Positions 23,632-31,533 of a stretch of 64,000 nt of DNA are shown one piece after another; the first letter of the stretch is position 1, and the number at the start of each line of letters is the position of its first letter. The DNA lies in IMG/VR virus record IMGVR_UViG_3300047157_000126, positions 17,729-81,728 of that record; one strand, 5' to 3'. The notes under the pieces were generated by a model. The model was not told the DNA's origin, did no database searches, and saw nothing but the letters and a program-made list of their open reading frames with translations. The DNA is from a virus. A program made the position numbers and the translations under genes.

Positions 23632-24138
23632 GTGTCTGCATTCAACAAAGCATGGTCTGTTCTCAAAATGACCGAAATGCCGATGGGAGGAGATGTACCG
23701 CCACAAGAGTCTTATTCCCACAAAGATTTGGATGCTGAGGCACTCATAGATTTCTTAATCCAAAATCTGGGAATGGATTATCAAGAGGCGAAAACCCTTG
23801 TTACACACCACAAAACCAAGGAAATGGGTGAAAAATCTCGTAAAAAGCCTCCGAAAGACAATGGTGGTGATATGTCCATGTCCCCTATGATGCCTATGGC
23901 TAAGGCAATGGATTTTCTCAAGGGTCGTGGGGATTTTAGAATGCGGAATGTGAAAAAGCCGCAAGTTCAAACAAGAACTCCTGCTGATGTAAATCAGATG
24001 GATTACAATGAACTAACGCCAGATGAACAATTAGAAAGGCGCAGAAACAAAGTTAATTCTTATGAATCTGAATACGCTAGAAAAAATCGAGAAGAAAAAG
24101 AAAGGCTTGCTCGTGAAATGGGAGAGGGTCAACAATGA
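23632..24138 (+). CDS. Leader-bearing protein (MSAFNKAWSVLK), putative internal virion protein
   Basis: GTG start; leader motif plus an internal KAMDFLK|G. Confidence 0.7.
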   Translation: MSAFNKAWSVLKMTEMPMGGDVPPQESYSHKDLDAEALIDFLIQNLGMDYQEAKTLVTHHKTKEMGEKSRKKPPKDNGGDMSMSPMMPMAKAMDFLKGRGDFRMRNVKKPQVQTRTPADVNQMDYNELTPDEQLERRRNKVNSYESEYARKNREEKERLAREMGEGQQ

Positions 24139-24179
24139 CAGCGTTTGAAACAGCATGGCCTCTTTTAAAAGCCTACTAA
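24135..24179 (+). CDS. Leader-only mini-ORF MTAFETAWPLLKAY
   Basis: ATGA overlap with the upstream stop; encodes only the conserved leader plus two residues. Confidence 0.6.
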   Translation: MTAFETAWPLLKAY

Positions 24180-24212
24180 AATAAGATAAAATAAACAAGG
24201 ACATTGATTAAA

Positions 24213-24668
24213 ATGACAGCATTTGAAGCAGCATGGGATATATTAAAAAGCAATACACTAGAAAAACAATCATATCATCCAGCAATTCATGGTTTGATGA
24301 ATAGAAAAAGACTTGCTGATGCTTTTAATGTTGATATGGATGAAGATTTTGAAGGTCAACATTACGGTTCAGTTGAAGAGCCTTATACAATGTATGATGA
24401 TGAAGTACCAACTATGCCTAATTACGAAGATGTAAAACACTTAGCAAATAAACCCTCATATTTCCAACCTAGTGATTTTGTAGATGAAGCACAAGGTATG
24501 GGTTATGAGCCGAAAGGTGCTAGTGGGCCTAATTCACTTAGAGCCGCAGAACAATCAGGTGAATTAAAAAGACAATCTAGAGGTTTAGCGACTAGAGATG
24601 CGGAAGCAAGAAGAAGGCAAGGAGATTTTAGAAATTATCCTAAGTTTGATTACGGGGCAAATATTTAA
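24213..24668 (+). CDS. Leader-bearing protein (MTAFEAAWDILK)
   Basis: Start corrected to the ATG at 24213 on the basis of the leader motif. Confidence 0.7.
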   Translation: MTAFEAAWDILKSNTLEKQSYHPAIHGLMNRKRLADAFNVDMDEDFEGQHYGSVEEPYTMYDDEVPTMPNYEDVKHLANKPSYFQPSDFVDEAQGMGYEPKGASGPNSLRAAEQSGELKRQSRGLATRDAEARRRQGDFRNYPKFDYGANI

Positions 24669-24877
24669 TGACAGCATTCAATGAAGCGTGGGATTTTCTC
24701 AAAGCAGACCCCATTGATATGCACGAATATCCCCCCGGTTCAGGTAATTTTATGTCTTTACAAGACATGATAATGGCTAGAAACGCAGATGCTCGCAAAA
24801 ATATGCAAAATATGACTCCAAAACCTAGACCAACAGGAGGTAACACGTATGACAAAAGACCTTCAGGTTGGCAATAG
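24668..24877 (+). CDS. Leader-bearing small protein (MTAFNEAWDFLK)
   Basis: Leader motif; TAATG coupling. Confidence 0.7.
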   Translation: MTAFNEAWDFLKADPIDMHEYPPGSGNFMSLQDMIMARNADARKNMQNMTPKPRPTGGNTYDKRPSGWQ

Positions 24878-25379
24878 ACCCTTCGACCAAGCGTGGATTG
24901 TACTCAAAGCGCCAATTTATGAGACACCAATATCTAATATTAATTTTCTAACTGGGAATCGAGAAGATTATGATAATAATGAAGAGATTTTTGGTGGAAT
25001 GTACCCCGAAGATAAAAGAAGAGACCACATACAGCAAATGACACCTAACGAGTATCTTAGTCGAACGCCCAAAACTTCACACCCTAATCTTGGAGGATGG
25101 TTTGAAGAAAAAATAAAACAGGCTATTGAAAATAATCAAAAATTAAGATTAGGTATGCCATGGGTTCAATATGACCCAAACATTACAGACCCGAAAGACC
25201 GTGATTATAGACTAAACTCACATGATGGAAGAAATAGAATGGCCGCTATGCAAAAACTTGGGCATGGAGATACTGAGTTTCCTGTAAGAGTTACACACTG
25301 GCCCCCTAAAAGGCAATTAACAATGCGAGAACAATTAGAAGAAGCAAAAAGAAGAGTAAAGGGTGGGGGGTTTTTATGA
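24849..25379 (+). CDS. Leader-bearing ParB/Sulfiredoxin-like protein
   Basis: RPFDQAWIVLK|A leader; HDGRNRMAAMQKLG...FPV resembles the ParB/Srx DG.HR..A...G motif. Confidence 0.65.
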   Translation: MTKDLQVGNRPFDQAWIVLKAPIYETPISNINFLTGNREDYDNNEEIFGGMYPEDKRRDHIQQMTPNEYLSRTPKTSHPNLGGWFEEKIKQAIENNQKLRLGMPWVQYDPNITDPKDRDYRLNSHDGRNRMAAMQKLGHGDTEFPVRVTHWPPKRQLTMREQLEEAKRRVKGGGFL

Positions 25380-29598: not shown

Positions 29599-29607
29599 GG
29601 GGGTTAC

Positions 29608-30495
29608 ATGTTTTCCGATATAATGGTGAATTATATCTTAAAAGATGAAAATACCCTTTTAGAGCCTCCAGAAGTAAATACTTCAAAATTACCACCAGAG
29701 TTTTTTGCAGGGCACGCTTCTGAAAGATTGAGTGACCCTCTTCGTATGCATGATGAAAATGAAAGTGCAGAAGTAAAAACTAGAACTATACAAGGTTTAG
29801 TTGATGCTGGAATTATGGGACCTTTAGGTAATTATACAAAAGATGCACCTAGACATGTAGCAGTTAGAACACATTTTCTAGATTCTTTTAGAAATCCCAT
29901 TGGGGTTAATGAAAAAGGACAACGACATTCAACTGGTAATACTATTGTAAGTATTGTAAGACCTCATAAAAAACATAGAACCCCTCAAGTAAAAACTGTA
30001 ATGCTTAGAGGTAATCATCAAAAATTTGGAAGAGGTGCTGGTCCGGGTACGATGAATGTAGACCAAGTTATAGACGCCTCACCTGAAAAAATAAATACAA
30101 ATAATCCGCAAGTCGCAATAAGAAGAGCGAGAAAAGCAAAAAAGAAAAAAGCAGCAAGAGTAAGAATCCTACCACCTGTACTACCCGGTCCGGGTTCAAC
30201 TAGACCATTGGTTAAAAAAATGGTTCTAATTAAAGCACCAAAAAGAAAAATGTCTGAAGCGGCCAGACAACATAAGTTGGCCTATGATAAAAAATACGAG
30301 TCTAGTCCTGAAAGAGTGAAATATCGAGTAGATTTGAATCGTGAGCGTAGACGCAGGGGTATTTATGGTTCGAATAATAAAAAAGATATTAGTCATACTC
30401 AAGGTGGAAAGTTTACTTTAGAAAACCAAAGTAGTAATAGGGCTAGGCATTTTAAAAATCGAGGCACACTTCGCAAGGTTAAGGTGAAGAAATGA
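29608..30495 (+). CDS. Two-part protein with C-terminal HNH-like basic domain
   Basis: VNYILK|D at the N-terminus; MVLIK|A precedes ...KKDISH...ENQSSNRAR. Confidence 0.55.
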   Translation: MFSDIMVNYILKDENTLLEPPEVNTSKLPPEFFAGHASERLSDPLRMHDENESAEVKTRTIQGLVDAGIMGPLGNYTKDAPRHVAVRTHFLDSFRNPIGVNEKGQRHSTGNTIVSIVRPHKKHRTPQVKTVMLRGNHQKFGRGAGPGTMNVDQVIDASPEKINTNNPQVAIRRARKAKKKKAARVRILPPVLPGPGSTRPLVKKMVLIKAPKRKMSEAARQHKLAYDKKYESSPERVKYRVDLNRERRRRGIYGSNNKKDISHTQGGKFTLENQSSNRARHFKNRGTLRKVKVKK

Positions 30496-30662
30496 ATAGT
30501 TGCGATTGTGGTCATTGTGTGGGTATGGACACTGTTTGGAAGAAACTCTGTCCTGAAGGAAAAGCGGCAGCAAAAAGAAAGTTCAAAGTTTATCCATCCG
30601 CTTATGCTAATGGGTGGGCTGTACAATATTGTCGTGGTAAGTTTAGGGGGAAGAAAAAATGA
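30492..30662 (+). CDS. 56-aa basic protein (AKRKFKVYPSAYANGW), not in ORF track
   Basis: ATGA-coupled at both ends; the motif is common in marine phages; CxC N-terminus. Confidence 0.7.
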   Translation: MNSCDCGHCVGMDTVWKKLCPEGKAAAKRKFKVYPSAYANGWAVQYCRGKFRGKKK

Positions 30663-30820
30663 AACTTAAGAAAGATAAATGTTGTTGCGGTGGTACTAAA
30701 AAAACACCTTGTGTTTGTATGATTGAGGGTAATCAATGTTCAGTATCTTCTCCTAAGTGTCCTTGTTATGCTTTGATAGACAAGCAAAAGAACATTAAGA
30801 AAATGGTAGGCATTCTATGA
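30659..30820 (+). CDS. 53-aa Cys-rich microprotein, not in ORF track
   Basis: MKLKKDKCCCGGTKKTPCVCMIEGNQCSVSSPKCPCYALIDK...; 8 Cys; ATGA-coupled at both ends. Confidence 0.65.
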   Translation: MKLKKDKCCCGGTKKTPCVCMIEGNQCSVSSPKCPCYALIDKQKNIKKMVGIL

Positions 30821-31533
30821 CACGATGTACCTGTCATGATGTACTCATTGTAAAAAACTTAAACCGTTGGTTTAAGGAAAAATGGGTAGATGTGTCACGT
30901 ACTAAAGACGGAAAGCACCCACCGTGTGGTAGAAGCAAGGGAAAACTTTCAGGTAAAGGTTATCCTAAATGCAGACCTTCAATCAAAGTTTCAAGTAAAA
31001 CACCTAAAACATCAGTTTCTATGTCATCAGGTGAGAAACAAGCAGCGACAAAAAGAAAACGTGCGAAAAAGCAAGGTGTGGATGGAAAACCAACAATAGT
31101 TAAGACAGACTACGCTATGCGAAGCAACATGAGTGCTTTTGATGCAGCGTGGAGTGTGTTGAAATCAAATACTCTTCCTATTAGACCTAAAGTTATGCAA
31201 TACGCAACCGACCAAAAGAAAACCATGAGATTAGAGCAGCCGGGTGGTGTCGCTCGAAGTGCTAGAAGAAAACTAATGGATGAAACTCAGGCTAGAAAAA
31301 ATGATAAATTTACAGATGAACCCGACATAATGAATCAGGAAGGGGATGTTCAAACTGAGTCATATGGACTGTCCCGACATGAATTGGAGGATTTACACGA
31401 TGCGAGAATGACTCACGAACCTGTTTATCGTAATATGTTTTGGAACACTTTAATGAATAGGAAAGAATACGAGGCAGGTGATTTGGGACACTTTAATGAA
31501 TATGATAGATTATATGAACGTGATTATGAATGA
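30817..31533 (+). CDS. DUF5872-like basic domain fused to an internal leader (MSAFDAAWSVLK at 31129) and cargo
   Basis: LNRWFKEKWVDV...PCGR...YPKCRP, then a full leader motif in frame. Confidence 0.65.
   Translation: MTRCTCHDVLIVKNLNRWFKEKWVDVSRTKDGKHPPCGRSKGKLSGKGYPKCRPSIKVSSKTPKTSVSMSSGEKQAATKRKRAKKQGVDGKPTIVKTDYAMRSNMSAFDAAWSVLKSNTLPIRPKVMQYATDQKKTMRLEQPGGVARSARRKLMDETQARKNDKFTDEPDIMNQEGDVQTESYGLSRHELEDLHDARMTHEPVYRNMFWNTLMNRKEYEAGDLGHFNEYDRLYERDYE

Follow-up and report, generated by a model that had tools for sequence, protein, structure and literature searches.

A short amphipathic tag on unrelated proteins of a magrovirus, proposed as a procapsid docking label

A recurrent peptide in the structural arm

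The DNA examined here, which we call the window, is a 64-kb stretch of an 81.7-kb contig from a tailed virus (IMG/VR record IMGVR_UViG_3300047157_000126), and our subject is a twelve-residue peptide, the tag, that recurs on otherwise unrelated proteins encoded in it. The + arm of the genome begins at 23.6 kb and carries the tagged genes, followed by genes for the terminase large subunit, the portal protein, an S78 prohead protease fused to a scaffold, and an SU10-type major capsid protein (Table 1). The - arm, together with the 17.7 kb upstream of the window, encodes an SNF2 helicase, a clamp-loader-like ATPase, a family B DNA polymerase, an ERCC4 nuclease and a group II chaperonin. This gene content (thermosome, family B polymerase, clamp-loader-like ATPase, ERCC4) fits the magroviruses as they are described in the available text of PMC5434244, which counts them among the viruses that are most abundant in the surface ocean and names uncultured Marine Group II archaea as their hosts. 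The relatives used for comparison are IMG/VR contigs of 86-115 kb; when the terminase was compared by tblastn with GenBank phages, every match fell below 60% identity.

The tag has the consensus M-x-[AP]-F-[DE]-x-A-W-x-[LV]-L-K and occurs in eleven copies between 23632 and 31164, all on the + strand and in all three frames. Six-frame translation and the regular expression [AP][FL][DENTK].[AS]W..L[KR] recovered each of the eleven peptides listed in the original prediction; the same scan found no twelfth copy elsewhere in the 64-kb window, and no additional copy lies in the other 17.7 kb of the genome. Shuffled sequences gave on average 0.01 (mononucleotide) or 0.02 (triplet-block) matches, with a maximum of one (100 shuffles each). 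A profile built from 170 distinct 12-mers of the window and 80 relatives, which were gathered through the neighbouring GTPase gene, scored the eleven copies at 15.4-21.7 bits; the next site, at 37321, reached 7.7 bits, and noise did not exceed 5.9 bits. Seven copies are strictly N-terminal (23632, with a GTG start, 24135, 24213, 24668, 25376, 26110 and 28967), two begin 5-10 residues past the likely start (24879 and 27220), and two are internal with a Met of their own (25682 and 31129). The copy at 24135 is an open reading frame (ORF) of 14 codons that consists of the tag without any cargo.

As a helix, the tag would begin with an N-cap Ser, Thr or Asn and continue as [AP]-F-[DE]-x-A-W-x-[LV]-L-K, which places Phe, Trp and Leu on the same side; natural variants with Tyr or Phe in place of Trp occur. 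The expectation that similarity stops at or just after the Lys proved accurate: between cargo families it extends only from -7 to +4 relative to the Trp. Among representatives of the cargo clusters described below, pairwise identity is 0.14 at position +5, where Ala is present in 23 of 70, and falls to background (~0.055) from +6 onward.

Two of the weaker copies that had been proposed gained support from relatives. Orthologues of the Lys/Arg-rich protein at 36922 hold the full motif SEPMDIAWQLLK at about the same residue (~137); they carry one to three full tags, at about residue 137-140 in many of them, with two or three in the longer versions. Relatives of the protein at 29263, whose copy reads EAMKKAFEFLK, show KAMKKAWDF[LI]K after an identical PQDTATP context. 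Degeneration may also account for two further genes. Orthologues of the DUF6321 protein begin with the tag MSAFDEAWDLLEK, and the PLVKKMVLIKA of the 295-residue basic protein is a possible degenerate tag, since its homologue P0016 has NPMNIAFQLLK ahead of the same module.

Table 1. Tagged genes and head genes of the window (aa, amino acids; bits, score against the tag profile)
Feature	Position	Strand	Remarks
Tagged gene 1	23632..24138	+	168 aa, GTG start; tag VSAFNKAWSVLK at residues 1-12, 17.3 bits; candidate weak internal copy KAMDFLK
Tag-only mini-ORF (empty cassette)	24135..24179	+	MTAFETAWPLLKAY*; 19.5 bits
Tagged gene	24213..24668	+	151 aa; tag MTAFEAAWDILK; no family match
Tagged gene	24668..24877	+	69 aa; tag MTAFNEAWDFLK
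Tagged gene	24849..25379	+	176 aa; tag NRPFDQAWIVLK at residues 10-21, then APIYE as in 26110
Double-tagged gene	25376..26113	+	MNPFDQAWLLLK at residues 1-12, MNPLDQAWALLK at residues 103-114; by its layout, two cassettes fused
Tagged gene	26110..27042	+	310 aa; tag, low-confidence linker, GNAT-like domain, KptA/Tpt1-type ADP-ribosyltransferase-like domain (both from a model)
Small tagged gene	27142..27396	+	tag EPFTEAWQVLK, likely start ATG 27205; 15.5 bits
Tagged gene	28967..29260	+	97 aa; tag MDAFEMSWNLLRK, 16.4 bits
Gene with degenerate internal tag	29263..29598	+	EAMKKAFEFLK (Trp to Phe); orthologues in relatives
295-aa basic protein	29608..30495	+	PLVKKMVLIKA ahead of PHROG 6437 module (E 6e-15)
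Fusion protein	30817..31533	+	DUF5872 at residues 14-85 (Pfam E 3e-10), internal tag MSAFDAAWSVLK at residues 105-116, tail; 19.5 bits
DUF6321 basic protein	31530..31886	+	Pfam E 8.5e-15; tag stretch degenerate (ASAALLDSVFEK)
Conserved Lys/Arg-rich low-complexity protein	36922..38157	+	411 aa; weakened internal tag GEPMAAAWSELRK at about residue 140, 7.7 bits
Terminase large subunit	41215..42714	+	
Portal protein	44050..45801	+	
112-aa protein	46202..46540	+	C-terminus HEMSWEEIHDMA repeats scaffold tail; two genes after portal gene
S78 prohead protease fused to scaffold	52557..53927	+	Pfam S78 E 3.7e-10
Tag-like scaffold helix DVEAAYEVYKAA	~53577-53612	+	residues 341-352 of the protease-scaffold
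Scaffold C-terminal tail EMSWDEVHNLA	53874-53906	+	residues 439-449 of the protease-scaffold
Major capsid protein	53946..55076	+	Pfam SU10_MCP E 2.3e-10; conserved S-E-L-L-K-[AS] at residues 30-35

Cargo diversity, exchange and specificity of the tag

A looser regular expression found 217 sites in the window and the 80 related loci, 202 of them on the strand of the GTPase gene. The profile gave 210 full hits, and the 202 with 25 or more residues of cargo form 70 BLASTP clusters, 39 of which are singletons. The central claim of the original prediction, that one short amphipathic peptide is borne by many unrelated cargoes, stands on this count. Its description of the peptide as an N-terminal leader holds in part: among 195 distinct occurrences, 105 are at the N-terminus and 30 lie within a few residues of it, but 36 are internal, 17 follow a Met with a long open frame upstream, and five are C-terminal, no more than eight residues short of the frame's end (a locus end cuts one of the five). 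The other two are tag-only ORFs. Because the tag also occurs inside proteins, in fusions and at C-termini, docking, rather than removal of an N-terminal peptide, would be its general property, and we propose that it is a portable docking helix.

Tagged genes behave as cassettes, in line with the exchangeable set that had been predicted. Five cargo families are found in two forms, as tagged genes on their own and downstream of an internal tag in a fusion; the protein P0011, for example, is another cargo fused to a domain that is found alone in tagged proteins of 185-196 residues. In comparison with the nearest relative (L001), with which the window shares blocks of 92-97% identity, homology breaks at 24149, 24666, 24907 and 26110, in or at tags. 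One block ends at 24149, inside the tag of the mini-ORF at 24135; a block starts at 24666, and a block ends at 24907, where a tag ends. A further relative (L003) has the fifth tag joined directly to the cargo of the eighth. Contigs of relatives also end within 10 kb of the GTPase gene far more often upstream (62 of 80) than downstream (8 of 80), consistent with a hypervariable region or perhaps with a genome end; in G001, G003 and G004 the contig ends between the replication arm and the tag cluster. At the strand switch itself (23340-23520) lies a GC-rich intergenic stretch with about nine copies of TTAGCG(C/G) spaced 10-20 bases apart, which may be an origin, a protein-binding array or a site near the genome end.

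Breakpoints of this kind raise the question of whether the element acts at the level of DNA or RNA, as a cassette recombination site or a translation-start element, with the peptide as a by-product. Besides the breakpoints in tag-coding DNA, the loose ends of RNA-library contigs at 24678 and 31139, both of them in tags, and the tag-only ORF at 24135 agree with such an element. We nevertheless judge it very improbable. The eleven tags share a mean nucleotide identity of 0.61, synonymous differences affect 61% of the codons for identical residues, and Leu is encoded by five different codons, so that it is the peptide that is conserved and not the DNA; in addition, conservation tracks the helix face, and internal and C-terminal copies are not gene starts. 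Eight RNA runs (labelled marine or seawater metagenomes) cover small shares (0.05-0.17) of the cluster.

Most tagged proteins and the large neighbours at 36922, 38154 and 47050 received almost no family names in Pfam and PHROGs scans. A number of cargoes, small and basic, belong to phage families that are widespread (DUF5872, DUF6321, and PHROGs 6437 and 27331). The most informative cargo is the product of 26110-27042, for which an AlphaFold2 (AF2) model from 14 sequences had a mean predicted local distance difference test (pLDDT) of 57, with residues 200-305 at 70-83 and the tag, modelled as a short helix, at ~36. In this model residues 192-310 are predicted to adopt a KptA/Tpt1-type ADP-ribosyltransferase-like fold, with likeness to the NAD-binding domain: they aligned with 9ld3_A at Z 9.2 (root-mean-square deviation 2.5 over 84 residues, 23% identity) and with 7kw9_A at Z 7.0 (VIA-align), and Foldseek returned 12 KptA/Tpt1 chains at E 1.4e-3 to 6e-2. 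The ADP-ribosyltransferase-like cargo named in the original prediction is thereby upheld as to its predicted fold. Its GNAT cargo fared less clearly. For residues 31-149 of the same protein, over 40 GNAT chains scored Z 6.7-7.8. These values are below the tool's safe level of Z 8 and come from a part of the model with pLDDT 42-72; there is no Pfam match, and the likeness is suggestive only. A ParB/Srx assignment had also been made. For the C-terminal domain of the 25376-26113 product it finds weak support (Pfam ParB_N at E 0.032, which is below the cut-off, PHROG 4715 at E 8e-5 and a PDB ParB chain at E 0.12), but for the 24849-25379 product the searches gave no match and do not support it.

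A search of IMG/VR for the exact pattern P-F-D-Q-A-W-x-L-L-K gave 24 stretches, on contigs no longer than 115 kb, and all five of the further contigs checked for it encode the same protease-scaffold protein. In 596 Gb of cellular genomes the pattern was matched twice, about the chance estimate (2), and both matches lie in stop-filled frames. By these searches the tag is specific to this virus group.

Within the genome, tags keep to the structural side. Across six near-complete genomes (G000, G001 and G003-G006), all 51 profile hits of at least 10 bits lie on the strand of the capsid gene, and the replication arm of these six holds no tag of at least 10 bits. Two of them (G003 and G006) have tagged genes among head and tail genes just past the capsid gene. 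G003, with eight tags in all, has three tagged genes past its head-completion genes and ahead of the next structural gene; one of the three bears the motif C-terminally. Two more follow an ORF of 5576 residues.

This ORF (G003:C1:44166-60896) is a single frame that closes the structural arm, and it is followed by a DUF6321 gene and then by the two tagged genes. The early TATA element of the window, the 21-base GATTCTATATAAAGAAATGAA, has nine copies (eight exact and one with a single mismatch) between 1532 and 23088, all on the - strand, opposite the tags. Each copy precedes a gene block, and the + arm is devoid of them.

Likeness to the scaffold, docking and the lysine end

The original prediction had likened the tag to a scaffold helix near 53580. 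When 37 protease-scaffold proteins (69-96% identical) were aligned, the scaffold part had a mean conservation of 0.72, and its best-conserved ten-residue stretches are residues 191-200 (0.98), 343-352 (EAAYEVYKAA, 0.98) and 440-449 (MSWDEVHNLA, 0.94). A residue-class regular expression, [VILMF][DEN].[AS][WYF].[VILMF][VILMFY][KR], has nine hits in the window, which are tags and the scaffold helix alone, where 0.1 would be expected. Applied to ORFs of at least 60 residues, it gave one scaffold hit in each of six genomes and no other hit outside the tags; the helix that it matches reads [VI]-E-x-A-Y-x-V-[YF]-K-A. The likeness therefore holds at the level of residue classes, but the tag profile finds nothing at this position. 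The scaffold tail, for its part, recurs at the C-terminus of orthologues of the 112-residue protein, and the pair is kept in both magrovirus lineages examined, which suggests that the small protein is a second scaffold-like protein using the same docking tail.

The second of these lineages comprises four near-complete genomes (G010, G011, G012 and G014) that were found through distant homologues of the protease-scaffold and whose capsid protein is ~38% identical to that of the first. These four genomes gave just one hit to the class regular expression of the first tag. They carry a tag of their own: 44 proteins begin with M-S-W-[KE]-[DN]-I-L-K, 43 of them encoded on the strand of the capsid gene, and many in the neighbourhood of the genes for terminase and portal. 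When M-[SDT]-W-x-[DEN]-[IVL] was searched in this lineage, eight of the nine hits away from an N-terminus were the C-terminal tails of the scaffold and of a scaffold-like protein of 74-81 residues. The second tag matches the start of the C-terminal tail, M-[SD]-W-x-[DE]-I, of its own scaffold and of that small protein. As judged from these motifs, the tag of each lineage resembles a conserved peptide of its own scaffold, and a different peptide in each.

The explanation toward which we lean, with moderate confidence, is that the tag is a procapsid docking label that copies scaffold peptides, probably with a cut at its Lys. It would serve as an address label: a portable amphipathic helix whose bearer is brought into the growing procapsid by docking at a site that the virus's own protease-scaffold protein uses; it would occupy that site because it imitates a conserved scaffold peptide. 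Its hydrophobic-Leu-Lys end would probably double as a cut site for the S78 prohead protease, with N-terminal tags clipped and fused cassettes separated inside the head. The cargoes would then be carried by the virion and pass into the host together with the DNA. Candidates for such delivery are the enzyme with GNAT and Tpt1/ADP-ribosyltransferase likeness, the weakly ParB-like protein and many small basic proteins, and the cassettes would be exchanged by recombination within tag-coding DNA. More tentatively, as a possibility about which we are doubtful, cargo loading may run by mimicry of the virus's own scaffold: each lineage would have made one conserved scaffold peptide a portable tag (here the internal helix DVEAAYEVYK/AA, in the sister lineage the C-terminal tail M-S-W-x-D-I), followed by capture, Lys-specific release by the S78 protease, and injection.

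The tag might instead dock to some other common partner, such as the thermosome, the Arf-like GTPase and its membrane cassette, or a host hub, and its bearers would then be unpackaged effectors or clients of the chaperonin. The F-x-x-x-W-x-x-L face is a generic helix-in-groove motif, as in p53-MDM2. The position of the tag also appears to be free (N-terminal, internal or C-terminal), and the cluster adjoins the GTPase cassette and lies beside the divergent control region, a frequent site of early genes. We regard such a partner as unlikely. G006, which is 100% complete, has tags without the GTPase, and many of the cargoes are small, basic and of low complexity (that of 36922-38157 among them) and would make improbable chaperonin clients. 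A partner of this kind would also leave unexplained the likeness of the tags to their own scaffold in two lineages, the agreement of the tag end with the L-L-K of the capsid protein, and the placement of tagged genes among head genes; nor was the exact tag variant found in coding frames of the 596 Gb of cellular genomes. Two specific candidates were set aside. The GTPase cassette is not a required partner, given the complete genome (G006) that has tags without it, and an HMGL-like enzyme, which lies between the terminase and portal genes in G001 and G004, was not found in G003 with its eight tags.

The end of the tag has parallels elsewhere in the head module. In both lineages the tags end in [ILV]-L-K, and the scaffold helix ends in Y-K-A-A; in the first lineage the terminal position is Lys (or Arg) in 67 of 70 cluster representatives. 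The capsid proteins of both lineages keep L-L-K-[ASQ] at about residues 28-35, after an otherwise variable Gly/Ser-rich stretch, and the S-E-L-L-K-[AS] of the window's capsid protein, which has the form of the tag end, is a candidate for a maturation cut. The HK97 maturation protease is, we assume, the founding S78 enzyme. Its capsid protein is cut at K103/S104 according to the available text of PMC10275583, and by analogy a cut after Lys by the S78 protease of the magrovirus is plausible. A search of the literature for N-terminal sequencing of haloarchaeal capsid proteins found nothing usable.

The same observations could be taken to mean that the motif is a processing signal only, a recognition or cut site for the protease at the joints of polyproteins that has no targeting role. 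Internal copies do lie at module joints of large proteins with two or three motifs, and the same modules occur fused and split (P0011 and the forms of ~190 residues). The Lys end fits cleavage of the HK97 type and is shared with the capsid protein and the scaffold helix. A site for an S78 protease, however, should not require ten conserved upstream residues that include an invariant Trp. With 105 of 195 copies at the very N-terminus, a cut would remove just 12 residues, which suits a removable address and not a joint, and neither C-terminal copies nor a tag-only ORF are joints. We give this alternative little credence.

Several points weigh against a procapsid docking label. Docking in the procapsid, the identity of the receptor, packaging, cleavage at the Lys and injection are all steps that we infer. 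The class regular expression was devised after the scaffold helix had been seen, so that its statistics are post hoc and not an unbiased test, and the tag profile raises neither the helix nor the scaffold tail above noise. That the tags of the two lineages resemble different scaffold peptides weakens any account with a single receptor. Structure prediction is of no help here: the AF2 model of the protease-scaffold (37 homologues) is poor, with a mean pLDDT of 41.5 and helices at residues 339-385 and 442-454, and this, together with the low pLDDT of the tag (~36), gives no information on docking. As to cleavage, the Lys is followed by varied residues, led by Ala in 23 of 70 and continuing with Gln, Met, Gly, Ser and others, and tags at extreme C-termini would gain nothing from a cut.

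The position and expression of the cluster add to these points. It is the first block of the + arm, beside the divergent control region, and could be an early rightward operon. Strand bias is also incomplete, as 19 of the 248 hits of at least 10 bits in the 80 loci lie opposite the GTPase gene; 13 of the 15 opposite-strand sites of the looser expression are in large proteins (496-635 residues) or their fragments. In the one such protein that was scanned, of 635 residues in L031, the N-terminus matches a Gly-zipper weakly (E 0.004). The four RNA runs that were examined consist of contigs only, which carry no level, strand or timing and could reflect DNA carry-over. Finally, the thermosome, one of the alternative partners, is found in all five complete tag-bearing genomes; in G000 the gene (Cpn60_TCP1, E 3e-127) lies at 4939-6441, upstream of the window.

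Comparison with known systems and other features of the genome

The nearest known system is the capsid targeting sequence of T4, followed by the P1 DarB signal. The T4 prohead protease cuts after Glu. In T4, IPI-III and Alt reach the prohead core by means of an N-terminal peptide, which the prohead protease then cuts off, and they are delivered to the host along with the DNA (PMC3012670 and PMC7411985). As in T4, the magrovirus tag is the sole common part of a diverse and fast-changing set of proteins: a likeness of 12 residues is spread over 70 clusters in plastic loci, with breakpoints at the tags. Alt is moreover an ADP-ribosyltransferase, and the cargo of 26110-27042 has a fold of that type. 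The differences are considerable. The host of the magrovirus is an archaeon, its protease is of the S78 (HK97) type and fused to the scaffold, and its peptide is another one, ending in Lys; the tag is also found internally and C-terminally, and it has a likeness to peptides of the scaffold itself. Homology is not indicated, since the protease is assigned to Pfam Peptidase_S78 and is not gp21-like, and the tag consensus appears unlike the T4 peptide. We therefore treat the tag as an analogue and not a member of the T4 system.

In P1, a reporter protein that carries the first 30 residues of DarB is taken into the capsid; here too a short N-terminal signal (~30 residues) suffices for a foreign protein, and the cargoes are anti-defence enzymes delivered with the DNA (PMC9024508). 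The P1 signal differs in being described for one protein and in needing helper Dar proteins that are added in order, whereas the magrovirus tag is on dozens of families. HK97 has a protease of the same family (Pfam Peptidase_S78), but its scaffold is the delta domain of the capsid protein, and we know of no family of tagged cargo proteins in that phage. Duda, Oh and Hendrix reportedly found in 2013 that a terminal segment of the HK97 protease targets the protease and reporter proteins into proheads. Encapsulins offer a cellular parallel, in which a short peptide on unrelated enzymes docks inside a shell of the HK97 fold; these peptides are mostly C-terminal and uncleaved, and the shells package no DNA.

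No mention of the tag was found in the magrovirus papers PMC5434244 and PMC11706807, in their available text and aside from supplementary gene tables, or in full-text searches with tag strings. Should the tag prove to be a label for loading the head, the proteins delivered into cells could be recognised from their sequence alone. The delivered set would then comprise dozens of families, including nucleic-acid- or protein-modifying enzymes, and would turn over between near-identical genomes; abundant archaeal viruses of the ocean would thus hold an arsenal of host-modifying enzymes that is swapped by recombination. As far as our searches show, the tag would then be the first signal for cargo loading to be described from an archaeal virus, and likewise the first tied to a fusion of an HK97-type protease with a scaffold. 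It would also provide a route for loading foreign proteins into the capsids of archaeal viruses.

Several features near the tagged genes and in the head module deserve mention in their own right. In the middle of the tag cluster, at 27377-28330, lies a gene for an HMGL-like TIM-barrel enzyme (Pfam E 1.2e-18). On the - strand of the cluster, 28289-28684 is an ORF for a Gly/Ala-rich protein of 131 residues; in some relatives the same region encodes large - strand proteins (~500-635 residues) with two internal tags. Two proteins of the packaging and head module, encoded at 47050-52533 (1827 residues) and 38154-40394 (746 residues), have no Pfam or PHROG match, and their orthologues are just 23-43% identical. 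Lastly, the portal gene contains at 45475-45582 an 18-base tandem repeat that codes for (P-G-G-A-P-P)n.

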